A model generated the notes under the pieces. The model saw nothing but the letters and a program-made list of their open reading frames with translations, was not told the origin of the DNA and searched no databases. From contig JALHFY010000001.1 of assembly GCA_022837635.1 (NCBI GenBank), positions 234,202 through 298,201 of the forward strand: a DNA stretch of 64,000 nt, given 5' to 3'. Shown here in pieces: positions 32,137 to 62,731 of this stretch (within the stretch, counting starts at the first letter, position 1; every line of letters begins with the position of its first letter). A program made the translations under genes and the position numbers. Source of the stretch: Candidatus Shapirobacteria bacterium. Lineage in GTDB: Bacteria; Patescibacteriota; Microgenomatia; UBA12405.

Positions 32137-32141
32137 TTAAA

Positions 32142-47579: not shown

Positions 47580-48599
47580 ATGGTAGGAATGAACAAGAAA
47601 GAGCTGATTTGTACGATAGGTGGCGGAACTGGAATGCCGGTAGTTAACGAAGCTTTAGTCAAGGCAGGTTATGAAAATATCTGGTCAATAGTAACTACCT
47701 TTGATAATGGCGGTGATACCGGCAGAATGAGGACAGATGAGCGGGGACAAACCTTGGCTAATTCTGATTATTGGCGATCATTAATCTCTTTGTGGGATGA
47801 TGGAACTCAAAAAAAAGTTTGGGTAGAGATGCTTAAATATCGTGATGGTAGAGACAGGAATTTTGGTAACACTTTTTTTCAGTTTATGACGGAAAAAACC
47901 GGTTCATTGGATAAGGTTGATGATTTATTTAAGTCGTTAACAATGGCTGATTTACATGGTCATGTTATCCCCTCCTCTCTGTTTTCAGCCAATATGTCTT
48001 TTGAAACAAACAATGGCAAGGTCTATCATGGTGAAAAATTTTTAGACCAGCTGAGAATGTCTTCTGATGTGGTGAAAAAATTATGGTTGGAACCTAAGGT
48101 TAAGGTTAATCCTGAAGCAGTCAAAGCGTTAAAAAGGGCTAAAATGATTATTGTTTGTCCAGGCAGTATTTTTGGATCATTGATGGCTAATTTTTTAGTC
48201 GATGGATTCAAGGAAGCTTTTAATCAAAGTCGAGCTAAAAAGATTTTAATGGTAAATTTGATGTCACAAGCCAATGAAGGTAATTTTGCCAATCAGTTGG
48301 AATATGAAGAATTGTTTAAGAAACATGTGGGAGTAAAATTTGACAGGATTTTAATGGCCGATTTAACTTGTCTTAATTCAAAGAAATTAGACAAATTACG
48401 TAAATTTTATGAGTTAGAGCATTCTAGAGAGGTAGAGTATGTGGAAGATGAAAGAACATTTTTAGAGGATTTGGCAACAATTGATGAAAAAAATTGGAGA
48501 TTGCGTCATAGTACTCAAAAATTAGCCCGTTTTTTTGCTAGAATGAGCTATGTCTCAAAAGAGATTAAGAAAGATAAAAAAAGAAAAAATAGAAACTAG
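47580..48599 (+). CDS. YvcK/CofD (UPF0052) family protein: gluconeogenesis-factor / 2-phospho-L-lactate-transferase-like
   Basis: IGGGTGMPVV......TTFDNGGDTGRMR, ..HGHVIPSS.., GEKFL, IVCPGSIFGSLMANFLV, LMVNLMSQANEG match the conserved blocks of the CofD/YvcK fold. Lys/Arg-rich C-terminal tail. Confidence 0.5.
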   Translation: MVGMNKKELICTIGGGTGMPVVNEALVKAGYENIWSIVTTFDNGGDTGRMRTDERGQTLANSDYWRSLISLWDDGTQKKVWVEMLKYRDGRDRNFGNTFFQFMTEKTGSLDKVDDLFKSLTMADLHGHVIPSSLFSANMSFETNNGKVYHGEKFLDQLRMSSDVVKKLWLEPKVKVNPEAVKALKRAKMIIVCPGSIFGSLMANFLVDGFKEAFNQSRAKKILMVNLMSQANEGNFANQLEYEELFKKHVGVKFDRILMADLTCLNSKKLDKLRKFYELEHSREVEYVEDERTFLEDLATIDEKNWRLRHSTQKLARFFARMSYVSKEIKKDKKRKNRN

Positions 48600-50280
48600 A
48601 AACAAGAAACCAGATACTAGAATATTGTTGCCGGGGGTGGTGGAGATTATTAGGAATAATTGGGTGTTTTTACTATTGACCTGTTTGGTGAGTTTGGTGT
48701 TGTATGCTAATGCCCTCAATGGTGCCTTTGTGTCTGATGATTATGCGACGGTACCCAACAATCCTTTGATTGGTGATTTTTGGGCAACGATGAAATCTTT
48801 CCCAGGAAACAGTATGGCCTTGAGTAATTATATTGTGTTTAAGTTTTTTGGTCACAGTAGCCCGGTACCTTATCATATTACTTCCTTATTGATATATATG
48901 TTGGTTTTAGTTTTGGCCTTGGTATTTATGGAGATAGTTTTTAAGAATAGATTACTAAGTCGGACAGCTGTTTTGATATTTGCTTTTCATCCAATTCATG
49001 TGGAGGCGGTCTCTTGGAATGCTGGGAGGATTTATTTAATTTTATCGGCTTATATGTTGTTATCGGTGATTAATTTAATTTATTTTCTAGACAGGGATAA
49101 GCCAAAATATTTGCTTTATGGAATGTTGTTTTTCTTGTTGGCTTTATTGACTGATCGGCCTCGCCCTTTTGCAATATTTTTAATTATTATCTTGTATTTA
49201 ACTTCACAACAAAACTGGGATATTTTGAAAAAATACAAAAAATATTATTGGTTAGTATTAGTCAGTTTACTGATTTCAGTTTTAATCAGTTTGCCATTGA
49301 TTAATAGTAGAATCGGGGCGGTAAATAGCGGCATTAATGCTTCTGGAAGTATTTTTTATAATCCAATTTTGCAATATCCGGTTTCGGTAACTAAATATTT
49401 ACAGTTGTTATGGGCACCTTTGAATTTAACTTTGTATCACACAATGTATGTTTTACCGACTTGGTTAAATTGGTTGATTACTTTGAATTATTTGGCTTTA
49501 TTGGTTTATTTTTACATTAAAGATAAAAGATATTTTTTCGCCTTGGCTTTTATTTTTGTAGCTACAGCTCCGTCGATGGCACCAATAAAGGTTAGTTGGT
49601 TGGTAGCGGAAAGATATATGTTTTTAGGTAGTCTGGGTTTTTGTTTGTTTTCGGCTTTGATATTAACTGATCTATGGAAAAAATCGAAGTTTTTAAGTTC
49701 TTTATTATTGATTTTATTGTTGGCTTTTTATGGCTGGCGAGTTTACCAAAGAAATATAGACTGGAGTACAAATCATAATTTATGGGTTAATACTTGTCAG
49801 GTGTCACCAAATAGTCACAATGCTTGGAATAATATTGGTGATGATTACGATAAATTGGGTCAGTTAGAAAATGCTATTAAAGGTTTTACTCAATCGGTTT
49901 TAACAAGACCAAATTATGCTGATGCTTATCATAATCGGGGTAATATATTTTATAAGATGAAAAGATTAGATTTAGCCAAAGAGTCTTATGAAACTGCAGT
50001 AAGGATTAATCCTAATTTATATCAAACTTATTTGGCTTTGGCTCAAATTGCTTTTGAGAGTCGAAATCCAAAATTAGCAAAGGAAAACTTGGAGAAATAC
50101 ATACGTTTTGATCAAAGTAATATTCAGGCTTATTATAGTTATGCTTTGGCTCAGGCTCAGTTGGGAGAAATAGAAGAAGCCAAGAAATTGTTAAAGGAGA
50201 TTTTAACAGTTTATCCAAATTTGGTACCGGTCAAAGAGTCTTTGAAGGTATTGGAGAACGGAATCAGTTTGACTAATTAA
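48550..50280 (+). CDS. Polytopic membrane protein with C-terminal TPR repeats (TMTC/PMT-like GT-C candidate)
   Basis: 576 aa. About 11 TM helices with an acidic SDDYATVP motif in the first loop. C-terminal ~170 aa contain at least 4 TPR-like repeats (AWNNIGDDYDKLGQLENAIKGF...ADAYHNRGNIFYKMKRLDLAKESYETAVRINP...YLALAQIAF..). The first 50 nt overlap the upstream gene. Confidence 0.5.
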   Translation: MSQKRLRKIKKEKIETRNKKPDTRILLPGVVEIIRNNWVFLLLTCLVSLVLYANALNGAFVSDDYATVPNNPLIGDFWATMKSFPGNSMALSNYIVFKFFGHSSPVPYHITSLLIYMLVLVLALVFMEIVFKNRLLSRTAVLIFAFHPIHVEAVSWNAGRIYLILSAYMLLSVINLIYFLDRDKPKYLLYGMLFFLLALLTDRPRPFAIFLIIILYLTSQQNWDILKKYKKYYWLVLVSLLISVLISLPLINSRIGAVNSGINASGSIFYNPILQYPVSVTKYLQLLWAPLNLTLYHTMYVLPTWLNWLITLNYLALLVYFYIKDKRYFFALAFIFVATAPSMAPIKVSWLVAERYMFLGSLGFCLFSALILTDLWKKSKFLSSLLLILLLAFYGWRVYQRNIDWSTNHNLWVNTCQVSPNSHNAWNNIGDDYDKLGQLENAIKGFTQSVLTRPNYADAYHNRGNIFYKMKRLDLAKESYETAVRINPNLYQTYLALAQIAFESRNPKLAKENLEKYIRFDQSNIQAYYSYALAQAQLGEIEEAKKLLKEILTVYPNLVPVKESLKVLENGISLTN

Positions 50281-50960
50281 TTCTTTTGAATTAAAAAAAC
50301 AAATTGAGGCGCTAACAGAGTTGGAAAAATAGGTAAAAAACTATATAGAGTGCCGGCGGGAAAAATTTTTAGGATTTTTAATTGAGGAAATTGTTGAATC
50401 AATTGTCTGGCGGTTTTTAGAGTGTAAAAATGGAGGTGTGTTTGATCCATGACACCGCCGTGATCAGAATAATTAAAATTGCCAAAGAGGTGAGATAGAC
50501 GGAAAGGTAATTGAGCAATGTTTGGCAGAGAAATAATGATAAAAGCATTTTTTTTGGCTTTGGGAATAATTTGTTTGAGTGTATGGCTGGGATTAACCAA
50601 GTGTTCTAAGACATCAGCTAAAACAATAAGATCATAATGGTTGGGAATTTTTTTAATATCTTGACTCTTATTTAAATCAAGTGCTAAGAATTTATGACAA
50701 TGTTTGCGAGCAGACTGGAAATAAAAAGAGTTGTTTTCCACACCGGTAACGAGATGTTTACCTTGAGTTAATTTGGCAATGTTGCCACCGGCGCAACCCA
50801 GATCAAGAATATGACTTTTAGTTGGTAAATATTGGTGAATAATATTGGAGATAATATTATGAACTCGAAAACGAAATTTAGTGTCTAAGAGTGGATAATG
50901 AAATCGTGTCATAGGAAAATTTGTTGATAAAGAAAAGTGGCGTGTTTGCGCCAGTCCCAT
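50277..50960 (-). CDS. Class I SAM-dependent methyltransferase
   Basis: ILDLGCAGGNIAKL (motif I), LIVLADVLEHLVNP, 227 aa. Confidence 0.7.
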   Translation of the reverse strand: MGLAQTRHFSLSTNFPMTRFHYPLLDTKFRFRVHNIISNIIHQYLPTKSHILDLGCAGGNIAKLTQGKHLVTGVENNSFYFQSARKHCHKFLALDLNKSQDIKKIPNHYDLIVLADVLEHLVNPSHTLKQIIPKAKKNAFIIISLPNIAQLPFRLSHLFGNFNYSDHGGVMDQTHLHFYTLKTARQLIQQFPQLKILKIFPAGTLYSFLPIFPTLLAPQFVFLIQKN

Positions 50961-52102
50961 TCATTTTTAATTAAAGCGAGAGCTTGACGGGAATATTTTT
51001 GATAGAGAATTGGATCTTCTAAAAGTCGAATAATATTTTTAGCAAATTGTTTTTGATTGTGAAGAGGAGTTTTGATCATCCCTTGAGAATAATAGGTTTT
51101 AAGGGCTGGTAAATCATAAGAAACACCGGGTAGAGCAAAGGCCATGGCTTCGGCAGCACTCATGCCACCACTATCAAAAATAGCCGGATGTAAGACAATT
51201 TTAGAATTGGCAAAGATTTGGTATTTCTTGGTCGCATGTTGAAAACCAAAATAAGAAATATTTTTTTGGAGTTTTAGTTTTTTGATTTTATTAAGCATTT
51301 GCTCTTTAAGTTGACCATCACCAATGATAGCCAGTTTAGCGGAGGGGATTTTGGAAATGACCAATTGCCAAATATCAATCATGCCCAAGACGCCCTTTTG
51401 GGGATGGAGTCGTCCTTGAAACACCGCCGCAAATTGACGTCGATTGACAGGAATTTTTTTAATTTTTTGAGAATGACTTAAATCAACTCCCCCACGAACA
51501 ATGATGGTTTTCTTGCCGGGAAAATATTTTTGATCGGGTTGAGAGGTGATTAAAATAAAATCGGCGTATTTATTGGCTAACTTTAGAGATAATTTTTGAG
51601 AAAAATAATAAAGATAATTTTTTAACAATTGGTCTTGGTAAGGTGAGTCCGGAGAAGAGGCTTTGGGGACAATCAAATAATAGCCACAAAGCCACCGACC
51701 TTGAGGATTGACTAATTTATATAACAGACCAAAGAGAAAATCCGGCCAAAAATCAGAAGCGGTATAACAATAGTCACTGGTTTTAAAAATTTTAAGATCT
51801 CTGATAAAGGCGATTAATCCCATGGTAAGTCGGCGGAGTTGGTGCCAAAGAAGGTTGATGACAGTAGCCTGGTAGTGAGGATTAAAGGTGTCAGTTTGAA
51901 GAAATTTAGTTTTAATTTGGTTTAATTTAAGCAAATGGCGAGCTTCAGCACTACCCCAGAGAGTAATATCTAAACGAGTTGACCAATATTTAATAAAATT
52001 TAAATAAATAGTGTCACCACCACTTTGAACCGGGCCAAGATTGTTGTTACTAATAATGACAAGACTTTTCTTTTTCATAAAGACCTGGCACAATTTTAGC
52101 AA
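50909..52102 (-). CDS. Glycosyltransferase family 4-like
   Basis: C-terminal HPAIFDSGGMSAAEAMAFALPGVSYDLPAL, 397 aa. Confidence 0.6.
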   Translation of the reverse strand: MLKLCQVFMKKKSLVIISNNNLGPVQSGGDTIYLNFIKYWSTRLDITLWGSAEARHLLKLNQIKTKFLQTDTFNPHYQATVINLLWHQLRRLTMGLIAFIRDLKIFKTSDYCYTASDFWPDFLFGLLYKLVNPQGRWLCGYYLIVPKASSPDSPYQDQLLKNYLYYFSQKLSLKLANKYADFILITSQPDQKYFPGKKTIIVRGGVDLSHSQKIKKIPVNRRQFAAVFQGRLHPQKGVLGMIDIWQLVISKIPSAKLAIIGDGQLKEQMLNKIKKLKLQKNISYFGFQHATKKYQIFANSKIVLHPAIFDSGGMSAAEAMAFALPGVSYDLPALKTYYSQGMIKTPLHNQKQFAKNIIRLLEDPILYQKYSRQALALIKNEWDWRKHATFLYQQIFL

Positions 52103-52810
52103 ATGAGAAATTCTTTGAAAGAGTCAGCTACTGACCGATTGGGAGCTAGAAATCAGGCATTTTTAAGATTTGTCGGTAAAGATAAAATTAAAAATAAAAT
52201 AATTTTAGATATTGGTTGCGGTTTGGCTTGGTTTGAATATCAAAACAGAAAAAAAGCAAAAAAGATTTGGGCGATAGATAAGGACGGAAAACATATCGAG
52301 CAAAATAAAAAATTATTAAAGGATAAAAATGTAGTATTTACAAAAGGAAGTGCCTTGAAAATTCCTTTAGAAAATGAAAGTGTAGAGGTGATAGTGGCCA
52401 GTGAAGTAATCGAACATCTTCCTAAAAAGACAGAGACAATTTTTTTTAGAGAAGCAAGGAGAGTTTTAAAAAAGAAAGGCGATTTGTTTTTGAGTACTCC
52501 AAATAATCATTTGATGGCTAAATTGTTTGATCCGGCTTGGTATTTTGGACATAGGCATTATGATTATAAAAAACTTAGAAAAATAGCTGAGACAGAGGGA
52601 TTACAAATGAAGGCTTATCAAATTAATGGTGCTTGGTGGAGTCTCTTGGGACTAATAAATATGTATGTGGCTAAATGGGTGTTTGGAAGAAGAAAATTCT
52701 GGGAAAATTTTTTTGAAGAAAGAGAATTAAAAGAAAGTAGGAGTTCAGGTTTTATGAATTTATTTATCGCTTTTGAAAAAAAAGAAGGTGATGGTGAGAA
52801 AAAATCTTAA
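52103..52810 (+). CDS. Class I SAM-dependent methyltransferase
   Basis: ILDIGCGLAWFEY (motif I), VIVASEVIEHLP, KGDLFLSTPN. Confidence 0.7.
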   Translation: MRNSLKESATDRLGARNQAFLRFVGKDKIKNKIILDIGCGLAWFEYQNRKKAKKIWAIDKDGKHIEQNKKLLKDKNVVFTKGSALKIPLENESVEVIVASEVIEHLPKKTETIFFREARRVLKKKGDLFLSTPNNHLMAKLFDPAWYFGHRHYDYKKLRKIAETEGLQMKAYQINGAWWSLLGLINMYVAKWVFGRRKFWENFFEERELKESRSSGFMNLFIAFEKKEGDGEKKS

Positions 52811-53543
52811 GAGGAGAATGATTGAGAATTCGATCAAAAAGACGGGTTAAAGGATAAAGTGAATTAATCATTTTTTGAGCAAATGGAAATGGTGCTATTT
52901 GTGGAAAAAAGTCAGTTTTAGCTGAGGAAATCAATAAATAATCTTTTTTAGGAAAGAGATTAAGCAGGTCTTTGAGACTATATCTAACATCATGACTTTT
53001 AATTAAAAGTTCACTCAGAGCTAGTTGTTCTGGGGTTCTGGCAATAACTAAATAGGCTCCAGGTTTTAAGACTTTCTTAATTTCAGCCAAAATTGATTTC
53101 ATTTTATTTGGATGGACATGTTCGATTACAGCGTGAGCAAAAACTAAATCAAAACTAGATTGAGGATAATTGAGATTTTTTCCATCAAAAAAATTAAATT
53201 TGAGGTTTTTTTTGTTTTTAGATAAAAGATTCCAAAGTTTTTGTTGGGCCATTTTACCATTGTGATGAAATTGAGTACTATCAGATTCAAAAACGTCAAC
53301 GGCTTGAACTTGATAGTTTTTGGATAAAAGGAAACTAGTTAAACCACTACCGCAGCCAAGGTCTAGAATTTTTTTCCCTGGGGGAATTAGATTATCTAGT
53401 TGATTAATAATATCTAAAGTGCCAGTGACGTAAGGGCGGGAATCAAAAAGAAAATCATGAGGAGTCAAAGAATTGCGTTTAAGAATATTAAAAAACGACT
53501 GTAAATCATGTTGTGTAACCGGTCGAAACTTTATTGTCGCCAT
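52764..53543 (-). CDS. Class I SAM-dependent methyltransferase
   Basis: ILDLGCGSGLTSFLL (motif I), LVFAHAVIEHV, KPGAYLVIARTP. Convergent with and overlapping 52103-52810 by 47 nt. Confidence 0.7.
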   Translation of the reverse strand: MATIKFRPVTQHDLQSFFNILKRNSLTPHDFLFDSRPYVTGTLDIINQLDNLIPPGKKILDLGCGSGLTSFLLSKNYQVQAVDVFESDSTQFHHNGKMAQQKLWNLLSKNKKNLKFNFFDGKNLNYPQSSFDLVFAHAVIEHVHPNKMKSILAEIKKVLKPGAYLVIARTPEQLALSELLIKSHDVRYSLKDLLNLFPKKDYLLISSAKTDFFPQIAPFPFAQKMINSLYPLTRLFDRILNHSPLKIFSHHHLLFFQKR

Positions 53544-54583
53544 TGATTTCTATCCAGAGATTTTAATAAACCCAGTTTATGTTTAATAGTAGTGGTAGCA
53601 TAAACGATAACAGTGACAAAACAAGCCAAAGGGTGAAAAAACCAGGCTGGATCGGGTTTTTTAATAAAACCACGGATGGCATCAAAGAGCGAGGGGAAAA
53701 TTAAGATACTGTATAGGGTGAAAGGGATAATTTTATTATTGGCACGACTCCATTGATATTGGCGATGGGCTTTGTAAGTGTAATAGTCGGTGACGCGACG
53801 TTGTTGTTTTTTGATGAATTTGGAAATAGAAGATTCACAAAAAGTGTGAATAATCCCCTCTTTAACCTTGGCAAAATAGAGAGGTGTTTTGGCGGCGGCC
53901 AGAATATCAATATCAAACAGATAATCGCCACTAAAGTTTTTCTGTAAAAAATCTTTTCGAAAGATAGTACCATTGGCACCAATAGTGGGAATTAAGGCGG
54001 GATTGTCAATTTTTAGTTTTAAGTAATTATCTTTATCTTCGCTTTTAATGGGTAAGCCGGTCCATTTATTAGAAAGATAACTGTATCGATCATAATTGCC
54101 GGTAAAATAGGAATAAGGATCATTGACACCTAAAAGAGCACTGTAACGTTCTATAAAACCGCCATGGGGACGATAAGTGAAACGAATGGGTTCTGAACCG
54201 ATAATGTCTTTGTCAGCAAAAGGTATCAGCATATTATCAAACCAGTTGGAGTGAGGTAAAAAATTGTCAGAGTCAATCAGAGCCACAAATTTTCCGGCAG
54301 CTTTTTTTAGACCAAGAGCTTTGCCAGCTTCAGCAGTTTTTAAGGAATTCTGAAAAATTTGACAATGATATTTTTTAGCAATTTTTAAGGTGTTATCGGT
54401 AGAGCCACCGTCCAGAATCAGGATTTCATAATCTTTGAATTTTTGTTTATCAATAGCCCGAAGACAATGAGTTAAGACTCTTTGGGCGTTAAGGGTGGGA
54501 ATGATGATAGAGAGCTTAGGAGAAGTCACGGAGTTTTTTGAGATATTTAACGGTATAAGTGAAGAGGAATTTGACATCATCAA
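53531..54583 (-). CDS. Glycosyltransferase family 2
   Basis: LSIIIPTLNAQRVLTHCLRAIDKQKFKDYEILILDGGSTDNT...ALIDSDNF. Confidence 0.75.
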   Translation of the reverse strand: MMMSNSSSLIPLNISKNSVTSPKLSIIIPTLNAQRVLTHCLRAIDKQKFKDYEILILDGGSTDNTLKIAKKYHCQIFQNSLKTAEAGKALGLKKAAGKFVALIDSDNFLPHSNWFDNMLIPFADKDIIGSEPIRFTYRPHGGFIERYSALLGVNDPYSYFTGNYDRYSYLSNKWTGLPIKSEDKDNYLKLKIDNPALIPTIGANGTIFRKDFLQKNFSGDYLFDIDILAAAKTPLYFAKVKEGIIHTFCESSISKFIKKQQRRVTDYYTYKAHRQYQWSRANNKIIPFTLYSILIFPSLFDAIRGFIKKPDPAWFFHPLACFVTVIVYATTTIKHKLGLLKSLDRNQWRQ

Positions 54584-56027
54584 AATTGCGAATAGAAAAA
54601 ATTTTTTTGATTAAAAATTTGGGAGTTAAGACACCATGAAAAAGTTCACGAATAATTTTTTTAATTTCTTCGTCAGTAAAAGGAGATTTCATGACTGGTT
54701 GACGCATATCAAAATCATCCCAATCTGTAGTTAACAACCAATCATTGTCGAGACATTGTTGATAGAGAGGGGTGCCGGGATAAGGAATGAGAATGGTGGC
54801 CTGCATACTATCCGCTAGTCCGTCTCGAAAAAGACTCTTGGCTTCATTGAGGGTTTTATAAGCATTTTGCTTGCTTTCCCAAGGATAACCAATCATGATA
54901 GTCAAATGAGGTTCTAAACCGGCTTTTTTAGCCATAATTAAGCTTTTGCGAGCGTCAGCAACTTTAGTGTTTTTATGGATGAAATCGAGAGTTTTTTGAT
55001 TGGATGATTCAAGTCCGTAAAGGACAAAACGGAAACCAGCTTGTCTCATTAAATTGTATTGTTCTTGACTGAGAGCGGCAAAACGCATATTGCAACCAAT
55101 AACGACTTTTTTATGGAGACCTCGCTGAATAAGTTGATGACACAGTTCTGTCAGCCAGGGACCAATAGGGAGACTACCACTATCATCAAAAATTTCTCGG
55201 ACCCCTAAAGAAACTAAATTTTCAATTTCTTTGATGGTATGGGTCACGGAAAAAGTTCTAAAAGTGCCAGCAGGATAAGTAGTGGTCCAGGAGCAAAAAG
55301 TACAGCGGCCCCACCAACAATCACGGCCGGACATAATGTAAGCGCCAGGTTTGTACTTAAAATTGGTATTTTCTTGGCCGTATAATTTCCATTTAGTTAG
55401 TTTTCGGTCGATAATAGGTAGAGTGTCTAAGTTGTGGTGTTTTAGGGCAAATTTACCAGTATTTAGAACTTTAGAACTATAGTTTTTTTGAGTTTTAGAG
55501 CGATAATAGAAACCGGGTTCGAGTTTAGTTTTATGAACTAAATGCTCGACTAGGTTAATCATCATGAAATCATAATCACCACCAGTGATGACATAGTCGA
55601 CTTTGGAATTTAAGAAGGATTCTTTGGGTAAAGCAGTGACATGATCTCCCATTAAAACAACAATGGAACGAGGTAGAAATTTTTTAATATGATTAATAAT
55701 CTGCCAATGTTTTTTAATAACTGGAGTTTTGGATTCGATGAAAATAATTTTAGGTTTTCTTTTTAAGAGACGATTAAACCATTTTTGATAAGGAATTTTT
55801 TCAGCAATAGCATCATCCCAATAGACCCGATAATCTTTTTGTTTCAAAGCGGTGGCTCCATAAGCGGGAATGACTGGAAGAATGACATTACCGGTATTAG
55901 TCCATTGAAATTGACGGTTTTGAGAAAGAAAAGGGATACCTTTATCGGATTCTAAAGGGGGAGAGGAAAAAGAGATAGAAAATTTTTTAACCGCCGATAT
56001 ATTGGCCGGTTTTTTTGTCAACTTCAT
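54516..56027 (-). CDS. Radical SAM enzyme with N-terminal cobalamin-binding-like domain (class B rSAM-like), non-canonical Cx4Cx2C cluster motif
   Basis: N-terminal Rossmann-like block KIIFIESKTPVIKKHWQIINHIKKFLPRSIVVLMGDHVTALPKE...VDYVITGGDYDF (B12-binding-domain-like). Cluster motif confirmed by hand translation: GRDCWWGRCTFCSW (C-x4-C-x2-C rather than C-x3-C-x2-C). 503 aa. Confidence 0.65.
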   Translation of the reverse strand: MKLTKKPANISAVKKFSISFSSPPLESDKGIPFLSQNRQFQWTNTGNVILPVIPAYGATALKQKDYRVYWDDAIAEKIPYQKWFNRLLKRKPKIIFIESKTPVIKKHWQIINHIKKFLPRSIVVLMGDHVTALPKESFLNSKVDYVITGGDYDFMMINLVEHLVHKTKLEPGFYYRSKTQKNYSSKVLNTGKFALKHHNLDTLPIIDRKLTKWKLYGQENTNFKYKPGAYIMSGRDCWWGRCTFCSWTTTYPAGTFRTFSVTHTIKEIENLVSLGVREIFDDSGSLPIGPWLTELCHQLIQRGLHKKVVIGCNMRFAALSQEQYNLMRQAGFRFVLYGLESSNQKTLDFIHKNTKVADARKSLIMAKKAGLEPHLTIMIGYPWESKQNAYKTLNEAKSLFRDGLADSMQATILIPYPGTPLYQQCLDNDWLLTTDWDDFDMRQPVMKSPFTDEEIKKIIRELFHGVLTPKFLIKKIFSIRNFDDVKFLFTYTVKYLKKLRDFS

Positions 56028-56949
56028 GGGCCTTAAAATCTAGGTCAAGTTTAACAAAACCAAAAATAAATAGCAGACCGTAATAAAGATGGGTAACAGG
56101 AATAGTAATAATGGTTAAGATAAGTAGATAAATAGATAAATTGGGAATAGTTAGGAGTAAATGGATGATGGTGAAGAAGAGGGCGGTGAGATATAAGTAA
56201 AGAGGGATAAGGCAATGATGTAAGGGAAGAGTGAGGAGATAAATAAGAAACAAAGATGGAGCTAGATAGCCGATCTTGAAACTGGTTTTAGGAAATTTAC
56301 GAGCAAAAAGACCACGATGGAGAGCGTAGCGACTGATTTGTTTGAGATGTGGTAAGAAAACAGCGCGACGATGGTGATAAACCTGAATAGAAGGGTGATA
56401 ATAAATTTTTTCACCGTGATTAATTAAGTCGAGGCAAAGAATGGTGTCTTCTCCGGGCCAGTATTTTGATTGAAAACCACCAATTTGGTGAAAAACTTTT
56501 TTATTGACAGTCAGATTAACAGTGGGATAATCTTCGACAAAACGAGCTTTTTGAGGAGAATTGCGATAATGACCGGCTCCCCCACTACCTAAAAAAGAGG
56601 ACCAAAATAAACCAGAGGCTTGTTGATAAACATTGTCATCTTTGGGAGTTAGGGTGGGACCGCAAAAAGCGGCCCAATGAGGATGTTTTTTAATTTGGGT
56701 ATGTAAGTTTTTTAGCCAGTTACTTTTAGGGTAAGAATCGTCATCCAGAAAACAGAGAAATTGGCCTTTAGCTTTTTTGGCACCTAAATTTCTCTTAAAA
56801 GCAGGATCAGCTTTTTTAGAGATTTTATCGGTGATAACTAAAACTTCAAAGTTCTTAAAACTTTGTTTCTGGAGATAAGTTAAAGTTTCTCGAAGATAAT
56901 CATTCTCTTGTCTGACAGGGATAATAATCGAAAAGAAGAACTTTTTCAT
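55987..56949 (-). CDS. Glycosyltransferase family 2 with C-terminal transmembrane region
   Basis: FSIIIPVRQENDYLRETLTYLQKQSFKNFEVLVITD...FLDDDSY, followed by ~80 aa with 2-3 TM helices. Confidence 0.75.
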   Translation of the reverse strand: MKKFFFSIIIPVRQENDYLRETLTYLQKQSFKNFEVLVITDKISKKADPAFKRNLGAKKAKGQFLCFLDDDSYPKSNWLKNLHTQIKKHPHWAAFCGPTLTPKDDNVYQQASGLFWSSFLGSGGAGHYRNSPQKARFVEDYPTVNLTVNKKVFHQIGGFQSKYWPGEDTILCLDLINHGEKIYYHPSIQVYHHRRAVFLPHLKQISRYALHRGLFARKFPKTSFKIGYLAPSLFLIYLLTLPLHHCLIPLYLYLTALFFTIIHLLLTIPNLSIYLLILTIITIPVTHLYYGLLFIFGFVKLDLDFKAHEVDKKTGQYIGG

Positions 56950-57761
56950 CCGGTATTGATTTTCATCTGTAATTCTTTATCAAAACGCCAGCGACGACGA
57001 TTTTGGTCATCATAATAGCGTAGAATTCTAAGGCGGTAAAAAACCGCTAGAGCGTCTCTAAGACTATTAATAACAACTTTGAAACCGGCTCCTTGAAGAT
57101 GAAGACCTTCAAAGATATAGGTCAGTTTGATTGGAGCTTCGTAAATTTTCTTGAAACCTAAATGTTTGGCGACAGCTAATATTTCTAGGTCAATAGCAAA
57201 GTTTTTAACTAAAAGACGGGGCAGAACCTTTTCCAAAACTTCTCTTTTAAAGATTTTAAGTCCAGCTTGAGTGTCACGGATATTAATTCCTAGTAAAAAT
57301 CTAGCAATTAAGTGACCACCAAAGCTAATGATTTTGCGATCGAAAGGATATTGAACTTGAGAAGCAGGATGATATTTAGAAGCAGCAATGATATCAGCAT
57401 CGTACCATTCCATGTGTTCTAAAATTAAGGAAATTCCATTGGGATCGATTTCCATGCCGGCATCAATAAAGGCAATATAGTCACCTTTGGCTCGAGCCAT
57501 GCCGTAACGAAGAGCATAACCCTTACCATGATTACTGGGATAACCGAGGACTTTTAATTTAGGTAATTTGAGTTCTTTGGCAAATTTATAAGTATTATCG
57601 ACACTGGTACCATCAACTACAACCAATAATTCAAAGTCATAGCGAATTTTTTTAAGAGTGGAATAGATGTGACGCAGGTCTTTTTTAATGGTTTTAGCTT
57701 GTTTGTAGGCAGGAACAATAACGGACAAAAAATGACTTTTATTTTTTCTCATCAAATTCAA
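56946..57761 (-). CDS. GT2 polyprenyl-phosphate sugar synthase-like (DPM1-type)
   Basis: LSVIVPAYKQAKTIKKDLRHIYSTL...LLVVVDGTSVDNT...AFIDAGMEIDP. 271 aa. Confidence 0.7.
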   Translation of the reverse strand: MNLMRKNKSHFLSVIVPAYKQAKTIKKDLRHIYSTLKKIRYDFELLVVVDGTSVDNTYKFAKELKLPKLKVLGYPSNHGKGYALRYGMARAKGDYIAFIDAGMEIDPNGISLILEHMEWYDADIIAASKYHPASQVQYPFDRKIISFGGHLIARFLLGINIRDTQAGLKIFKREVLEKVLPRLLVKNFAIDLEILAVAKHLGFKKIYEAPIKLTYIFEGLHLQGAGFKVVINSLRDALAVFYRLRILRYYDDQNRRRWRFDKELQMKINTG

Positions 57762-58836
57762 TTAGTTTATAAACAGCCAAAGTAGATAAAGCGGTATTTT
57801 GCCAGGAGAAAAACTGGGCTCGCTTTTGACCTAAGAGTGAATATTGACGACGAAGTTGAGTTGAGGTCCAAAGTTTTTTAAGAGCTTGACGAATTGAGGT
57901 TTGAGAATAAGGATCAAAGAATTCACCGGCAAAATCCATAATTTCAGGTAAACAGCTTTCTTGAGAATAAGCCACCGGGGTGCCTGATTGCATAGCTTCA
58001 ACCAAAGTTAAACCAAAACCCTCGGAAAAAGAAGCTTGGCAATAAATCGTGGCCAAATTGTAAAGAAGAGGTAGATCTTCGTCGGGAACAAAACCAAGGA
58101 GTTGTATTTTTTTTGTACCTTGGTGTTTACGAGCTTGAGATTGAAGCCAAAGAATGTCTTGTGTCCAAGGATGATCGGGAACTTCTTTGGTAGCAGCGCC
58201 ACCGGCGATAACCAGAGGGTAGTTGAGGGCTAAACAAGCTTTAGTTAAACCGGGAACATTTTTATTCCAATTAACATCACCGACAAAAAGAACAAATTTT
58301 TTAGGTAAATTATATTTTTTGGCGATTTTTTGAAAGAGTTTTTTGTTTTTTCGAGGCTTAAAATTGGCAGTGGCGGCCTCATAGGTAACATAGATTTTTT
58401 CAGCCGGATATTTGAGGTGATCTAGAATTTGATATTTAGCTGAATGTGAGGGGCAAAGGATATAGTTGGCGTTTTCTAGGCGTCGTTTTTGAATTAACCA
58501 CTTTATTTCTCCTTTGAGACCAACAGGAAAATGTTTTTTGAAAGCTCTGGGAATAAGATCGTGACAGGTGACAATTTGAGGAATGTCACTTTGAGGTAAA
58601 GTTAACTTAAAAGGATCGAAATAAGGATAATGAAGGAGATCAAAATTTTGAATTTTTGATTTCGGATCCTCAATTAGAGAAATTTGATAATGCCGATAGT
58701 TGGGATTATTTTTGACTTCCTTTTGGAGAGCATCAACCAAGTGTCGAGTGTAATAACCGACTCCCCTTTTAGAATTACCATCATTGAGAGGACTAACATC
58801 AATGCCAATCTTAAATTTTTTCATGTTCCATTTCAA
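57739..58836 (-). CDS. Glycosyltransferase family 4
   Basis: SEGFGLTLVEAMQSGTPVAYSQESCLPEIMDFAGEFF. Confidence 0.75.
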   Translation of the reverse strand: MKWNMKKFKIGIDVSPLNDGNSKRGVGYYTRHLVDALQKEVKNNPNYRHYQISLIEDPKSKIQNFDLLHYPYFDPFKLTLPQSDIPQIVTCHDLIPRAFKKHFPVGLKGEIKWLIQKRRLENANYILCPSHSAKYQILDHLKYPAEKIYVTYEAATANFKPRKNKKLFQKIAKKYNLPKKFVLFVGDVNWNKNVPGLTKACLALNYPLVIAGGAATKEVPDHPWTQDILWLQSQARKHQGTKKIQLLGFVPDEDLPLLYNLATIYCQASFSEGFGLTLVEAMQSGTPVAYSQESCLPEIMDFAGEFFDPYSQTSIRQALKKLWTSTQLRRQYSLLGQKRAQFFSWQNTALSTLAVYKLIEFDEKK

Positions 58837-59587
58837 AAACTTTTATGTAAGCAATAGGAAAACGAAGTGATGAATACCAGGCGAAAACGAAACCAGGAAA
58901 GCCATCCATAAAGCCCTTATGTCGAAAATAAGCCAAAAAGAACCAGGCTAAGGGTTTAAAAATAAAGTAAACAATGAAAGAAAAGAAACCGGTTTTTAGA
59001 CCCGCCTTTTTAAGATCAGAAGCTAAAAGTGAGGTGTAGCGATCGTTTCTTAAAAGATAGCGGGAAAAATTAGGGTCGGCATAGTGGAGGAGATCATGGT
59101 TGAGGGTGGAGACTGGACCGGTAACAACGGCTTGCTCATGAACATCTTTACAGGGAAGCCTGCCCATACCGCGACGATAAAGACGAATGGTGGGGTCAGG
59201 GTAGACACCGCCTTTTTTGAGAAAACGGCCTAAAAAGTAGTTTTGACGTTTAATCCAAAAACCATGGTATTCAGTTTTAGGAATGGTTTGTAAAATTTCT
59301 TTTTGAAGCTCTGGGCTAATAATTTCATCAGCATCAAGCTGTAAAATCCAGTCACTTTTACAAGCATCAATAGCCATCTGTTTATTAAGATGAAACATGG
59401 CTTTGTTGGTGGTAGAAATCAACCTGACTTTGGGATATTTTTTAACTATCTGAGTAGTCTTGTCCGAAGATTGACCGTCGACGATGACAATTTCATCGAC
59501 CCAGGATTTGACGGCGTTCAGGCATTTGGCAATATTTTTCTCTTCATTATAAGTGGCAATGGCGACAGAAAGAGTGGTTTTTTTCAT
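58811..59587 (-). CDS. GT2 polyprenyl-phosphate sugar synthase-like with C-terminal TM helices (GtrB/DPM1-type)
   Basis: LSVAIATYNEEKNIAKCLNAVKSWVDEIVIVDGQSSDKT...LQLDADE. C-terminus FFSFIVYFIFKPLAWFFLAYF (two TM helices) as in GtrB-type enzymes. Immediately upstream of the GT-C triplet. Confidence 0.75.
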   Translation of the reverse strand: MKKTTLSVAIATYNEEKNIAKCLNAVKSWVDEIVIVDGQSSDKTTQIVKKYPKVRLISTTNKAMFHLNKQMAIDACKSDWILQLDADEIISPELQKEILQTIPKTEYHGFWIKRQNYFLGRFLKKGGVYPDPTIRLYRRGMGRLPCKDVHEQAVVTGPVSTLNHDLLHYADPNFSRYLLRNDRYTSLLASDLKKAGLKTGFFSFIVYFIFKPLAWFFLAYFRHKGFMDGFPGFVFAWYSSLRFPIAYIKVFEMEHEKI

Positions 59588-61140
59588 TTGACTGAGTATA
59601 TTTTAAAGCTTTGACCGCTTTTTTCAAAATTATCGGCATCAATTACTAGAGAATTACTAGGAATGTGTTCAGGGATTTGGAAGTGAATATTGTCAATTTG
59701 AAGAACAGTAGAGAAACCAAAATGGTCGGGAGGAGTGGGATTAATTTTACTTTGAATTTCTGCCGGTGGATATAAACTGTAAAAGAGGTAGAGGATATAA
59801 GGTTGGTCGTACTTATTGGTCATATAAATATTTTGATAATTATGTTTTTCGGTCTCAATTAGAGGAATAATTTCTTTGAATCCCCTATTCCAGGCAAAGG
59901 AATAACGTTGAGGTGAATGAATAAAATAAGCGTCTAGAAAATAGAGACTAAAGATGAGATATAAAAAGATGAGGAGATAAGTAGATAAGTAGGGAGTAAG
60001 TTGATAAAGGCCATAGGCGGTGAAAAAAGATAGAGGCACAACCATGGATAAAGCTCGAAGAGCAGACGGTGCCTGGAAGGTCAGTGAAGAAGCCAGAGGG
60101 GAAATAAGTAGATAAGCAATGAAAAATATTTTTAGATTTAATTTGATTTTTTTAGAATGAATAAAGGAATAGAGACCATATAAAAGTAATGGCAATTCAA
60201 TTAAATGCATTTGTCCCATTTCCGGAGAAGCGGAGCGAGGGACGGCATCACCATCGATAAAAAGGAAATTAAGATCAAAATGAGACAGATATTTTTGAAC
60301 AAAAGAGAGTAAATATTGTGTTCTTTGATTATGAATAATTTTTTGAAAATAATTGATCTGACTATGGTGATGAAGAAGTTCTTTGGAACGGGAAACAGGT
60401 CCGGTATCAGCAAATAAACCGACACCACCAAAACGGGTAGTACCACCACTATTGAGGAAAGAATAAACCACAGGTACCGATAAAAGTAGAGCCATGATAA
60501 TAGAAATAATTAGAGGAGTAGATAAGCAATGGAGTAGTTTTTTAAGGTTGAGGAGAAATAAAGTGAGAACAATGAGAGGAGCGATAAGACGAGCTGAATG
60601 GTAAACATAAAGAGAGGCGATAAAGGGTAAAGGGAAAAGGAAAAGATATTTTGATTTGGGTTTGTCTAAAAAACGATAGAAAAAATAAATTCCCAAGAGA
60701 ATAAAAAAAACTGAGGTGGCACTTTCCCAGGCACCACGGGAAAAATGAATGTGCCAAGGAGACAGAGCCAATACCAGAGAACTATAGAGCGCTAGAGTTT
60801 CAGATTTAAATAAGAGAAAAACTAATTTATAAAGAATATAGACGGTTAAAACTGAGAGGACGAGATTGGGAAGACGAACAGCCAGGGGAGTGAGTCCTAA
60901 AACTTTAATAAAAGGTAGAGCTAAATAAACATAACCACCGGGTTTATAGTCACTAAAAGACTTAAAATGGAGAGGCCAAGAAATTCCGTGTTCATCACGA
61001 CCGGTCTGAATTAAAGAATAGGCATTGTAGCCCAGGGCGGCCTCATCAGGATTGAGAGAGGGTACAGAGTTAATATTCCAAAAACGAAGCAGGGTGGCAA
61101 TGACAAGAATGATAATTAATTTAGTCTTGGTGGTAAGCAT
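59584..61140 (-). CDS. GT-C family membrane glycosyltransferase (PMT/ArnT-like, polyprenyl-phosphate-sugar dependent), paralog 1
   Basis: 518 aa, ≥10 TM. First-loop motif VPSLNPDEAALGYNAYSLIQTGRDEHG (the DE motif of GT39/GT83-type GT-C enzymes). SPWHIHFSRGAWES block shared with the two upstream paralogs. Confidence 0.65.
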   Translation of the reverse strand: MLTTKTKLIIILVIATLLRFWNINSVPSLNPDEAALGYNAYSLIQTGRDEHGISWPLHFKSFSDYKPGGYVYLALPFIKVLGLTPLAVRLPNLVLSVLTVYILYKLVFLLFKSETLALYSSLVLALSPWHIHFSRGAWESATSVFFILLGIYFFYRFLDKPKSKYLFLFPLPFIASLYVYHSARLIAPLIVLTLFLLNLKKLLHCLSTPLIISIIMALLLSVPVVYSFLNSGGTTRFGGVGLFADTGPVSRSKELLHHHSQINYFQKIIHNQRTQYLLSFVQKYLSHFDLNFLFIDGDAVPRSASPEMGQMHLIELPLLLYGLYSFIHSKKIKLNLKIFFIAYLLISPLASSLTFQAPSALRALSMVVPLSFFTAYGLYQLTPYLSTYLLIFLYLIFSLYFLDAYFIHSPQRYSFAWNRGFKEIIPLIETEKHNYQNIYMTNKYDQPYILYLFYSLYPPAEIQSKINPTPPDHFGFSTVLQIDNIHFQIPEHIPSNSLVIDADNFEKSGQSFKIYSVK

Positions 61141-62731
61141 AGAAGGTAGAAATAGTATTAACCGGACTTAAGGGAATGAATTGACTAAATTCGGGACGTG
61201 ATTCCAGACCTTGACGGTAAACTTCTTCTTGAGCAAAAATACCTAAGACTCCGGGATTTTCTCGGATAAAATCGAAGTGAGCCGTTCGGAAATTAAGATT
61301 ATCAACCTGTTTGACTATTCCGGTATCGCCGTGAATATTGTCGGTAAGATGAGATTGTTGTTGATAAAGTTTGGGGGGATATTTGGAGAAGAAGAGATAA
61401 TAGATATAAGGTTGACCATAATAATCAGTAAAATAAATTTGACTGTCTTTATATTTTTCTCGATTGGCGATGACATATTTAATTGCCTCTTGGTAGCCAT
61501 AGAGTAATTGGTCGGGATCTTTTTGAATCATGTGATGATAATAAAGATCTTGATAGTAGAAAAAAGAAAGGAGATAAGATAAGCCGACAAGTAGATAAAT
61601 AGATTTTTTATGGATTTTGGAGAGACCAAGGGAGGTAAAGTAGATTAGTGGGATGGACATGGACATGGTGCGAACAGCGGTGATGGTGTCTCGAGTAAGG
61701 GCGCCGGGAATGGGGGCAAACAAAAGCCATAATAAGAAAAAGAGAGAAGTGGAAGAATAATTGAGCAGACCGATAATAAGAAAGATAAAAGAAGGATAGA
61801 GAATTACCCCGATATATGGGGCAGAATGACGGAGATTTTGCCAATCACCTTCAAAGAGTAAAAAGCGAGTGGAAAAGTGATTAAAATAACGAGAGAGAAA
61901 ATTTCTGAGAAAAAAGATAGGTTGACTATGGAAAAGTTGATAGTCCAAGTGACTGGATTCTTTAATGATTAAATCAGTTTCCTCCTGTGAGCGGGGGTAA
62001 GAACTGAGAGACAACACTTTCAGTCGGTTGCTGTCAGCAGAAAAGAGAAGACCGTAGGCGACAGGTAAAGCCAGGAGAAAAAGTGGGAGAATAAATTTTA
62101 AGGCAATGCTTTTGAAATTAGTTTTGAGGTGAGTGAATTGAGAAATAAAGAGGCTCAGAATAATTGAAGGAGTGATTAATTTTCCAGCTTGATAACTGTA
62201 GAGACTGAGAGCAAAAACTAAGGCAGAAGGTAAATAACGTTTTTTAATAAAGAAAAGAGAAGCGAGGAGTAATTCGAAAGTCAGGAGATTAGTTTCCCAG
62301 CCACCCCGAGAAAAATGAAGATTCCAGGGGTTAAAAGCGAGTAAGAGAGCGGCTAAAAGAGCCTGTTTTTCGGACTTGGGAGAAAGAGCTTTAATTAAAA
62401 AATATAAAAGGAGGGGCGATAAAGAACCGACAATAATGGAAGGTAGGCGGACAGCCAAGGGATTGAGACCAAAGAGAGCCACAAAAGGAACAGTTAGATA
62501 AATATAAATTCCCGGTTTATAGTCACCAAAAGATTTGAAAATTAGGGGTAAAAAAACGCCGTGTTCATCACGACCGGTTTTCAAAATAGAGTAAGCATTG
62601 TAGCCGATAGCAGCTTCATCCCAGAGAAGAGGTGGATAAGAAGTAGCCCGATAGACTCTAAAAACAAAGGCGATAAGAGTGAGAATGATTAAAAATAAAA
62701 GATGTTTTTTATTCATGAGTGACGATATCAA
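61121..62731 (-). CDS. GT-C family membrane glycosyltransferase (PMT/ArnT-like), paralog 2
   Basis: 536 aa. YPPLLWDEAAIGYNAYSILKTGRDEHGVFLPLIFKSFGDYKPG is near-collinear with paralog 1 (LNPDEAALGYNAYSLIQTGRDEHGISWPLHFKSFSDYKPG). Overlaps paralog 1 by 20 nt. Confidence 0.65.
   Translation of the reverse strand: MISSLMNKKHLLFLIILTLIAFVFRVYRATSYPPLLWDEAAIGYNAYSILKTGRDEHGVFLPLIFKSFGDYKPGIYIYLTVPFVALFGLNPLAVRLPSIIVGSLSPLLLYFLIKALSPKSEKQALLAALLLAFNPWNLHFSRGGWETNLLTFELLLASLFFIKKRYLPSALVFALSLYSYQAGKLITPSIILSLFISQFTHLKTNFKSIALKFILPLFLLALPVAYGLLFSADSNRLKVLSLSSYPRSQEETDLIIKESSHLDYQLFHSQPIFFLRNFLSRYFNHFSTRFLLFEGDWQNLRHSAPYIGVILYPSFIFLIIGLLNYSSTSLFFLLWLLFAPIPGALTRDTITAVRTMSMSIPLIYFTSLGLSKIHKKSIYLLVGLSYLLSFFYYQDLYYHHMIQKDPDQLLYGYQEAIKYVIANREKYKDSQIYFTDYYGQPYIYYLFFSKYPPKLYQQQSHLTDNIHGDTGIVKQVDNLNFRTAHFDFIRENPGVLGIFAQEEVYRQGLESRPEFSQFIPLSPVNTISTFYAYHQD

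Follow-up and report, generated by a model that had tools for sequence, protein, structure and literature searches.

An uncharacterised family of radical SAM enzymes, present in 573 or more species-level genomes of Patescibacteria, is nearly always encoded beside one particular membrane glycosyltransferase (GT2), and this pairing is what stands out in the glycan locus described here. The member studied is a 503-aa protein encoded within a window of 64,000 nucleotides, the whole stretch of DNA that was analysed (Table 1). The family is widespread in Patescibacteria and, judged by its sequences, branches beside the HpnJ/BchE-like group of enzymes with class B architecture. Our best reading, to which we give about an even chance, is that the enzyme carries out a radical modification of a sugar on the membrane-bound product of the upstream GT2, by rearrangement or elimination and not by methyl transfer. 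No paper on this radical SAM family in Patescibacteria/CPR was found in the literature.

Table 1. Features of the radical SAM gene and the surrounding glycan locus (positions in the window; residue numbers refer to the 503-aa protein).
Feature	Position	Strand	Basis
Radical SAM enzyme, 503 aa, ATG start, class-B-type architecture	54516..56027	-	Rossmann domain N-terminal, radical SAM barrel, C-terminal helical cap
Putative [4Fe-4S] cluster motif C237-WWGR-C242-TF-C245 (Cx4Cx2C)	55293..55319	-	DNA read directly; homologue conservation; OxsB profile alignment
N-terminal Rossmann (cobalamin-binding-like) domain, aa 17-176	55500..55979	-	AF2 secondary structure; Pfam B12-binding below gathering score; motif conservation
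Very long beta1-alpha1 loop, aa 23-51, no His, family-invariant KGxPFLxQNRQFQWTNTGN	55875..55961	-	Invariant alignment columns
Radical SAM partial TIM barrel, aa 228-420	54768..55346	-	Pfam, alignment, AF2
GGE-like F280-D-D-x-G284, in barrel	55176-55190	-	
Membrane GT2, 320 aa, synthase-like, conserved partner	55987..56949	-	Pfam GT2 / Glyco_trans_2_3
Downstream GT2, 350 aa, hydrophobic C-terminus	53531..54583	-	Pfam
GT2 resembling polyprenyl-phosphate sugar synthases (DPMS/Ppm1-like)	56946..57761	-	PDB, NCBIfam
GT4	57739-58836	-	Operon member conserved in Shapirobacteria-type loci only
GT2	58811-59587	-	Operon member conserved in Shapirobacteria-type loci only
Two tandem GT-C (PMT/PMT_2-like) glycosyltransferases	59584-61140, 61121-62731	-	Pfam
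Third tandem ORF of GT-C array, without Pfam match	62709-63977	-	
Class I SAM methyltransferase, variable decoration module (50277..53543)	52764-53543	-	
Class I SAM methyltransferase, variable decoration module	52103-52810	+	
Class I SAM methyltransferase, variable decoration module	50277-50960	-	
GT4, variable decoration module	50909-52102	-	

The cluster motif

Read directly from the DNA, the minus strand from 55319 to 55293 runs tgt tgg tgg ggc cgc tgt act ttt tgc (C W W G R C T F C). In context the motif is DCWWGRCTFC (C237-x4-C242-x2-C245), and the whole protein holds six cysteines altogether. The open reading frame and this reading bear out the earlier note, which had described a radical SAM gene with a Cx4Cx2C motif, one residue longer than the canonical one. 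The Pfam Radical_SAM model (PF04055) matches residues 236-394 over model positions 6-164 with 46.1 bits against a gathering score of 29.5, and the cluster motif forms the beginning of this match. The three-cysteine motif, the SAM motifs described below and the profile match confirm, at the level of sequence, a genuine radical SAM enzyme, which would be expected to bind a [4Fe-4S] cluster and SAM.

All of the 120 best homologues (65-95% identity) carry the same C-x4-C-x2-C as DCWWG[KR]CTFC, and CxxxCxxC occurs in 0/120. The identical 503-aa protein is present on 11 contigs, the four shown representing three sequencing runs and one GenBank assembly. Together these two observations rule out an assembly indel, which had been raised as a possible source of the extra residue. 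Nor is the spacing unusual for such enzymes: Cx4Cx2C is the family norm here, and it is reported both for GenD1/Sis14 and for OxsB, in whose crystal structures it holds the cluster alongside SAM and which is active with that spacing (PMC9204698, PMC4340712). This literature and the profile alignment of the motif onto OxsB CDYSRCTFC rule it out as novel; Cx4Cx2C is already an established way of binding the cluster among enzymes of this class, and the motif itself matters little. The RadicalSAM.org entry 'Megacluster-4-11 CX4CX2C' is unrelated, belonging to the biotin/thiazole-synthase megacluster and not to the B12-binding one.

Domain architecture and cobalamin motifs

The AF2 model of the enzyme (pLDDT 84, pTM 0.87) places Rossmann strands at residues 17-22, 67-72, 94-99, 122-127 and 145-148, N-terminal of the cluster motif, and has pLDDT <50 in the cluster loop at residues 238-241 and 246-253. 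A check for a SAM-binding GGE-like motif, as had been suggested, found FDDxG at residues 280-284. Elsewhere in the barrel C312-N-M-R ends beta3, G338-L-E-S is the ribose motif and G380-Y-P-W-E384 the GxIxGxxE motif. In the alignment the core motifs FDDxG, GLES and GYPWE are invariant throughout the family.

The cluster motif had also been described as preceded by a B12-binding-like Rossmann domain. The Rossmann fold is upheld by AF2, whereas the Pfam B12-binding model (PF02310) reaches 20.1 bits, short of its gathering score of 32.1. Class B enzymes contact cobalamin (Cbl) through a long His-less beta1-alpha1 loop, GxS/TxX at beta3-alpha3, Gly-Gly on beta4 and Gly-Glu before alpha5 (PMC9204698). 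Set against this pattern, the protein has the long His-less loop (aa 23-51) and IESKT96-101 with a conserved T101, but G127-D-H129 has one Gly only and G150-D151 has Asp for Glu. The loop, modelled with low pLDDT at residues 30-45 and mostly gapped in Cx3 relatives, corresponds in position to the extended 'His loop' that class B enzymes have. T101, G127-D-H129 and G150-D151-x-D153 stand where the class B Cbl motifs fall, and in the Cx3 relatives T101 and H129 are each conserved in 51/51, G127 in 50/51 and G150 in 49/51, with D/E at position 151. The pattern is altered yet compatible with cobalamin binding, and the enzyme may use cobalamin. AprD4 is reported without cobalamin binding, and AprD4 and ArsL illustrate that this architecture can be cobalamin-free (PMC12931638).

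A conserved glycosyltransferase partner in a variable locus

The end of the upstream GT2 gene overlaps the start of the radical SAM gene by 41 nt. This GT2 carries the motifs DDD (69-71), G166-E-D-T169 and Q204-x-x-R-Y208, and its C-terminal helices are probably membrane-spanning. It is MftF/EpsD-like, with MftF as its top NCBIfam match (81.9 bits); among NCBIfam models there was no HpnI match, and HpnB reached E 0.016. The AF2 model (pLDDT 93) has its best full-length fold matches in BcsA and hyaluronan synthases (TMq 0.57-0.63). Comparison of related loci, proposed earlier as a check for conserved synteny, revealed this GT2 immediately upstream of the radical SAM gene in 65/70 loci, and no more than about 1.5 kb away in 69/70. 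The adjacency is kept at 52-55% identity, where the remaining operon differs, and Cx3- and Cx7-loop relatives likewise adjoin MftF/EpsD-like GT2 genes. Within the pair, the radical SAM protein shows the higher conservation in 61/65 loci.

The neighbourhood had been correctly described as containing a GT2 on either side and three SAM methyltransferases, which are of class I, close by. The methyltransferases, however, had been read as meaningful context, and they fall in a part of the locus that varies; it is the upstream GT2 that is the conserved partner. The downstream GT2 lies within 2.2 kb of the radical SAM gene in 50/65 loci and is a frequent, not a universal, partner. Further upstream, the polyprenyl-phosphate-type GT2 has dolichol-P-mannose synthase 5mlz as its top PDB match (E 2.4e-15), and its NCBIfam matches include PpgS and ArnC. 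The GT-C array runs past the end of the window, and on a longer contig (L001) comprises five tandem genes of ~515-550 aa, four of them with PMT/PMT_2 matches. Among the other Shapirobacteria loci, those studied in detail (L005-L007) also have canonical Cx3Cx2C B12-type radical SAM paralogues in the variable module. Paralogous radical SAM matches in 22 related loci have Cx3 spacing in 30/31 cases, and the two L005 paralogues examined are both canonical Cx3Cx2C, one with textbook Cbl motifs and its top score on a P-methyltransferase model. The surroundings of the gene showed neither an HpnK-type deacetylase nor an AprD3-type reductase, no hopanoid genes were found within the window, and the conserved core contained no precursor-peptide or lipid-synthesis gene.

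Comparison with characterised enzymes

The best profile match of the protein is HpnJ (TIGR03471; 128.9 bits, E 2.5e-37), which covers almost the entire protein (residues 94-500). The two have the same two-domain architecture, a similar size (about 470-500 aa) and a pathway with a membrane GT2, and HpnJ-like relatives also have C296 and C312 conserved. HpnJ is proposed to act on a membrane-lipid-attached sugar, by ring contraction of lipid-linked glucosamine, and similarity networks are reported to group HpnJ with the C-methylases Fom3 and MoeK5. However, the score lies far below the equivalog cutoff of 577.6, and even the closest Cx3 relatives stop at 471 bits. The HpnJ-like relatives have Cx3Cx2C (RGCPxxCTFCxWPQ) without the long QNRQFQW loop, an NJ tree puts the query in a separate clade, and its partner GT2 is MftF/EpsD-like and not HpnI. 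Score (129 vs 578) and context (no HpnI match, no deacetylase in the operon) rule out an HpnJ orthologue.

AprD4, a radical SAM 1,2-diol dehydratase of apramycin biosynthesis, is the top PDB sequence match (6fd2; E 4e-10, 17% identity) and also the closest fold match; it acts on a sugar ring and its Rossmann domain resembles a Cbl domain. The AprD4 family model (NF033070) scores 46.3 bits against a cutoff of 500 and covers the barrel only (residues 244-448). AprD4 is reported without cobalamin, whereas the 503-aa protein retains Cbl-type motif residues and has no AprD3-like reductase partner in view.

OxsB (PDB 5ul2-4), which performs the cobalamin-dependent ring contraction in oxetanocin A biosynthesis, has the same Cx4Cx2C, and the profile alignment is residue for residue (sgrdCwwGkCtfC vs TSRGCDYSRCTFC). 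The Cbl-domain motifs also align, GD with GN on beta4 and GGD with EGE before alpha5. Its chemistry is non-methylase sugar chemistry, the ring contraction of deoxyribose, and its substrate is a soluble nucleotide. The relation is weak (profile E 7e-4, and a single-sequence search misses OxsB), and OxsB is a 744-aa protein of four-domain layout with an extra N-terminal domain that the 503-aa protein lacks.

Compared by description, cobalamin-dependent sugar C-methyltransferases of the GenD1/GenK/MoeK5 type have class B architecture and sugar substrates in common with the enzyme, and GenD1 is reported with the same Cx4Cx2C. Scores on methylase-like models (PhpK, HpnR, KedN5) were 29-73 bits against cutoffs of 600-700, while BchE gave 95 bits and the ladderane lipid radical SAM model 51 bits. 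Since both HpnJ and AprD4 scores lie far below the family cutoffs, orthology gives no basis for assigning the chemistry. Whether judged by profile, fold or motif, the closest characterised enzymes (HpnJ, AprD4 and OxsB) are all sugar-acting non-methylases.

Proposed function and alternatives

The earlier note had suggested C-methylated or otherwise radical-modified sugar residues. The gene lies in a conserved glycan locus and a sugar is its most plausible substrate, whereas C-methylation is less favoured, the nearest relatives being non-methylases and the methylase models scoring far below cutoff. For the type of chemistry we infer the following scheme. C237, C242 and C245, in a loop expanded by one residue, would hold the [4Fe-4S] cluster, as the same spacing does in OxsB, and the cluster would cleave SAM to a 5'-deoxyadenosyl radical. 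The enzyme and the overlapping, synthase-like membrane GT2 would act as a dyad, the radical taking a hydrogen from the sugar that the GT2 has placed on a membrane-bound acceptor, whether a lipid-linked sugar or a glycan under construction. The next step would be a radical rearrangement or elimination, such as ring contraction, dehydration/deoxygenation or epimerisation, and not methyl transfer. The neighbouring GT2, GT4 and GT-C enzymes may elaborate the modified unit, and the class I methyltransferases may O-methylate it variably. A narrower proposal, which we consider unlikely, sees GT2 and radical SAM enzyme as a minimal HpnI/HpnJ-like module, conserved across many Patescibacteria, whose product is a sugar of carbocyclic (cyclitol-type), deoxy or C-branched form, built on a membrane acceptor that is not a hopanoid.

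Characterised class B enzymes are mostly methylases, and the retained Cbl-type positions (T101, GxH, GD) would suit a Cbl-dependent methylase equally well, which counts against rearrangement or elimination. A methylcobalamin-dependent C-methylase, which would add a methyl branch to a carbon of a sugar in the GT2 product, is a less likely alternative. MoeK5, which acts on a lipid-linked sugar of moenomycin, and GenD1/GenK, on aminoglycoside sugars, are reported precedents, and GenD1 matches even in its cluster spacing. The class B architecture, the Cbl-motif positions held in common with the Cx3 relatives and the reported clustering of HpnJ with Fom3 and MoeK5 point the same way, and the canonical B12-type paralogues in sister genomes suggest that cobalamin is available to these organisms. 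Those paralogues, however, sit in the variable module and not in the conserved slot beside the GT2. The sub-threshold Pfam B12-binding match, a closest fold that is cobalamin-free (PMC12931638), the low methylase-model scores and three top characterised neighbours that are non-methylases all argue against methyl transfer.

It is rather improbable that the substrate is not a sugar but another molecule produced or handled at the membrane (a lipid chain, polyprenyl or other, or else a peptide or protein glycosylated at a later step), with the GT2 link reflecting a common pathway and not a common substrate. The HpnJ/BchE-like relatives do include lipid- and tetrapyrrole-modifying enzymes (compare the ladderane and BchE scores above), the PMT-like GT-C enzymes of the operon could glycosylate proteins, and some relatives occur in non-glycan contexts (P0216, beside Trm112 and a methyltransferase; P0136, beside ABC exporters). 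The invariant neighbour, however, is a glycosyltransferase and not a lipid or peptide gene, the conserved core lacks genes of either kind, and sugars are the substrates of the closest analogues by structure and motif. That the Cx4 is an assembly indel or the protein an inactive pseudo-enzyme is scarcely credible: degenerate Cys-less paralogues exist in the same clade, but the spacing recurs on every contig and in every homologue compared, an extra in-frame codon is an atypical assembly error, all core radical SAM motifs are invariant in a protein better conserved than its neighbour, and OxsB is active with the same spacing.

Implications

Patescibacteria are tiny, uncultured, little understood and considered reliant on hosts for their lipids and cofactors. 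The coupling of a strongly conserved radical SAM enzyme to the GT2 suggests that a radical-modified sugar is a widely shared, uncharacterised part of their cell envelope. If the HpnI/HpnJ-like module is real, its product would be a building block of envelope glycolipids or glycopolymers, new to science and shared by hundreds of species. The gene pair may also offer a compact two-gene system in which to study HpnJ-type chemistry, for which the reviews consulted report no in vitro reconstitution. Patescibacteria are generally considered unable to make cobalamin, and the family could show whether such enzymes need it in organisms of this kind; a literature search on cobalamin use by Patescibacteria returned nothing relevant.

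Plasticity of the iron-sulfur loop

Across the clade the iron-sulfur loop appears unusually plastic, with Cx3, Cx4, Cx7 and Cx9 to Cx17 spacings, and in some full-length relatives (P0135, P0136, P0147, P0149, P0154) all three cysteines are lost. In some homologues homing inteins sit at the third cluster cysteine, which is consistent with an indispensable catalytic site; nothing relevant was found in the literature on inteins in CPR radical SAM genes. Long homologues were considered as gene fusions that might reveal a partner, and this was ruled out, the extra length being intein insertions. One relative, P0202, is a class I methyltransferase fusion and a distant Cx3 protein.

Iron-Sulfur Motif and Family Placement

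The reading frame assigned in the earlier note to a radical SAM enzyme is genuine, with an ATG start and a product of 503 aa, and the cluster motif is as that note had it: tgt tgg tgg ggc cgc tgt act ttt tgc encodes C237-W-W-G-R-C242-T-F-C245, a Cx4Cx2C motif that exceeds the canonical spacing by one residue. Pfam matches Radical_SAM over residues 236-394 with 46.1 bits (gathering score 29.5), and these cysteines stand at the start of the match. An assembly indel, raised earlier as a possible source of the extra residue, is ruled out and the spacing is genuine, because 'DCWWG[KR]CTFC' occurs in 120/120 of the closest database homologues (65-95% identity to the query), CxxxCxxC being absent among them, and the identical 503-aa protein was found on 11 contigs, of which the four shown represent three sequencing runs and one GenBank assembly.

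The longer spacing now carries less weight as an unusual feature, as Cx4Cx2C is already known. A CX4CX2C motif is present in OxsB, a cobalamin-dependent radical SAM enzyme whose crystal structures include cluster and SAM (PMC9204698), and the same spacing is given for GenD1 of the gentamicin pathway and Sis14 of the sisomicin pathway (PMC4340712). A PDB search with the family profile finds OxsB, aligning the query-family 'sgrdCwwGkCtfC' to OxsB 'TSRGCDYSRCTFC'. Many CXnCX2C variants are catalogued by RadicalSAM.org; its Cx4 megacluster 4-11 is part of a different subgroup.

In profile searches the top curated family is HpnJ (128.9 bits, E 2.5e-37, residues 94-500), followed by BchE (95 bits) and PhpK (73 bits), all three scores falling far short of the model cutoffs. 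A representative search returned 23,506 relatives at E <= 1e-3; their HpnJ-model score climbs from 191 to 471 bits as identity to the query drops, and none of those scored reaches the HpnJ cutoff. A rough NJ tree places the query clade apart from a large Cx3 HpnJ-like group. The cluster loop in this clade is strikingly plastic, being mostly Cx4 but also Cx7, Cx9, Cx10, Cx17 and a single Cx3. The AF2 model of the query is confident (pLDDT 84, pTM 0.87) and its nearest fold match is AprD4, a sugar 1,2-diol dehydratase that binds no cobalamin despite a Rossmann-like domain (2026 review, PMC12931638). The query is a so far uncharacterised radical SAM protein of a known sort of enzyme.

Among individual relatives, Cx7 loops are found in P0129, P0131 and P0133 and longer ones in P0137, P0156, P0158 and P0190 (the last beyond Cx17). 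A sub-branch of full-length proteins in the query clade (P0135, P0136, P0147, P0149, P0154) has lost all three cysteines, while further residues typical of the family are kept; its members may be pseudo-enzyme paralogues. Five homologues of 665-972 aa from outside the window (P0121, P0123, P0124, P0126, P0127) carry an intein, which consists of a Hint domain, alone or together with a LAGLIDADG homing endonuclease. Both sequences inspected, P0121 and P0127, have it directly in front of the third Fe-S cysteine (...RDCWWGKCTF|CFPPE...VKN|CSWTT), and therefore the +1 splice nucleophile is the cluster ligand itself.

Features of the locus and of the encoded radical SAM protein. Cobalamin (Cbl)-motif positions follow the definitions of PMC9204698.
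Feature	Position	Strand	Remark
Radical SAM gene	54516-56027	-	503 aa
Cx4Cx2C codons	55319-55293	-	C237, C242, C245
C245 codon	55293-55295	-	equivalent of intein site; intein-free here
Upstream (partner) GT2	55987-56949	-	320 aa
Downstream GT2	53531-54583	-	350 aa
GT2_258	58811-59587		GT2
Tandem paralogues	59584-63977 and beyond		about 515-550 aa each
Variable module	50277-53543		methyltransferases, GT4
Class I methyltransferase	50277-50960
CofD/YvcK-family and 576-aa TPR genes	47580-50280	+
ABC-2 transporter pair	46000-47545
Second glycan cluster	26000-46000		GC 28-30%
ABC-2 transporter pair of second cluster	31303-33398
beta1-alpha1 loop	aa 23-51		very long, His-less; invariant QNRQFQWTNTGN
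beta3-alpha3 loop residue	T101		Cbl-motif position
beta4 motif	G127-D-H129		Cbl-motif position
Motif preceding alpha5	G150-D151		Cbl-motif position

A Conserved GT2-Radical SAM Dyad

The neighbourhood is as first described, with GT2 genes on either side and three class I SAM methyltransferases, to which two GT4 genes, a GT2 resembling dolichol-phosphate mannose synthase (DPMS) and tandem PMT-like GT-C genes are added. Synteny was counted by ORF and blastp analysis of 80 loci, with denominators of 70 or 65. The 320-aa GT2 lies immediately upstream in 65/70 loci and within about 1.5 kb upstream in 69/70, the remaining one having it beside the radical SAM gene on the opposite strand; the 350-aa GT2 is downstream in 50/65. 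The radical SAM protein is more conserved than the upstream GT2 in 61/65 loci. Even the most distant loci (52-55% identity) retain this GT2, the PMT, GT4 and GT2_258 genes being missing. The two reading frames share 41 nt in the window, and relatives P0128 (Cx3) and P0129 (Cx7) likewise adjoin MftF/EpsD-like GT2 genes. The two genes form a conserved dyad.

The partner GT2, a very small synthase-like membrane GT2 with HHRR at 192-195, is modelled at pLDDT 93 by AF2; among its full-length fold matches, BcsA and hyaluronan synthase, both of them membrane synthases, rank highest (TMq 0.57-0.63), and in the profile search it is not HpnI-like. Its invariant DDD, GEDT and QxxRY motifs resemble D,D,D,QxxRW, the signature by which inverting GT2 enzymes embedded in the membrane are recognised. 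The DPMS-like GT2 farther upstream (271 aa; 5mlz, E 2.4e-15) fits the tandem GT-C genes, expected users of polyprenyl-phosphate sugars.

A pattern scan using one genome per species found the family in at least 573 species representatives. Credible deposited labels of carriers are patescibacterial (Shapiro-, Woese-, Moran-, Falkow-, Gribaldo- and Parcubacteria). Many other contigs with this operon, which is otherwise typical of Patescibacteria (L008, L011, L013, L025, L067, L071 and others), are labelled 'uncultured Gammaproteobacteria', 'Pseudomonadales' or 'Bdellovibrionales bacterium' and come from binchicken/SPIRE-type MAGs, and one is labelled 'Candidatus Methanoperedens'; these labels are probably placeholder or wrong taxonomy.

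Possible Cobalamin Binding and Proposed Chemistry

The B12-binding-like domain proposed earlier stands as a Rossmann-type domain N-terminal to the motif, but its Pfam B12-binding score is 20.1 bits against a gathering score of 32.1. T101, G127, H129 and G150 line up with OxsB motifs in the profile alignment and are nearly universal in Cx3 relatives too, a pattern compatible, at the level of sequence, with a corrin pocket. Against this, the second Gly and the Glu of the Cbl motifs are both substituted, and the nearest fold match, AprD4, is cobalamin-free. Two paralogous B12-type radical SAM genes examined in a sister Shapirobacteria cluster are both canonical Cx3Cx2C, one having textbook Cbl motifs (GIATPFS, AGGTHAT, RGEGE) and its top score with a P-methyltransferase model, which suggests that cobalamin enzymes exist in these organisms.

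The earlier suggestion of C-methylated or otherwise radical-modified sugars holds only in part, the observation behind it being correct. We favour, at about even confidence, an enzyme that modifies the sugar of the co-encoded GT2 without methylation. The Cx4Cx2C loop would very probably hold a [4Fe-4S] cluster in the manner of OxsB and produce a 5'-dAdo radical, which would rather probably abstract hydrogen from a sugar that the synthase-like GT2 has attached to a membrane-bound acceptor. The sugar may then undergo a rearrangement or an elimination without methyl transfer; this last step is tentative and argued by analogy, because each of the three closest characterised analogues, identified by criteria independent of one another, is a sugar-modifying non-methylase: HpnJ (profile), AprD4 (fold) and OxsB (motif). 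The main rival, a Cbl-dependent sugar C-methylase, is less probable but plausible, because class B enzymes are mostly methylases, HpnJ is reported in one cluster with MoeK5 and Fom3, and GenD1 has Cx4Cx2C as well. The canonical B12-type paralogues, of which one is methylase-like, occupy the variable module in the sister loci examined, and not the conserved slot beside the GT2.

Surrounding Genes

Shapirobacteria locus L005 (GW2011_GWE1_38_10) has canonical Cx3Cx2C B12-type paralogues at 11481-13037 and 17522-19087, within the variable portion of its cluster. The latter scores 240 bits with the Sden_1168 P-methyltransferase model and takes the position of the class I methyltransferase at 50277-50960 in the window, which suggests that decoration modules are interchangeable between loci. 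Cx3 is found in 30/31 such paralogues (22 loci).

The tandem paralogues upstream of the operon mostly give PMT/PMT_2-like GT-C matches: two of three ORFs in the window, and four of five genes on the longer contig L001 (1-6444). The array is kept in Shapirobacteria-type loci (57-86% identity) and missing from nearly all loci of 52-57% identity. In many loci the conserved operon ends, on its downstream side, at the CofD/YvcK-family and TPR genes, with an ABC-2 transporter pair coming after them.

The second glycan cluster, of markedly lower GC than the rest of the window (about 36-38%), carries glycosyltransferase genes of families GT2 and GT4, along with an ABC-2 transporter pair and a gene for a methyltransferase-domain protein. 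It may be an O-antigen-like module that is hypervariable or was acquired horizontally. GC skew is above zero in every 2-kb stretch of 1-64000 despite switches in gene orientation, which is minus at 306-22474 and 50277-63977 and mostly plus at 22508-44018.
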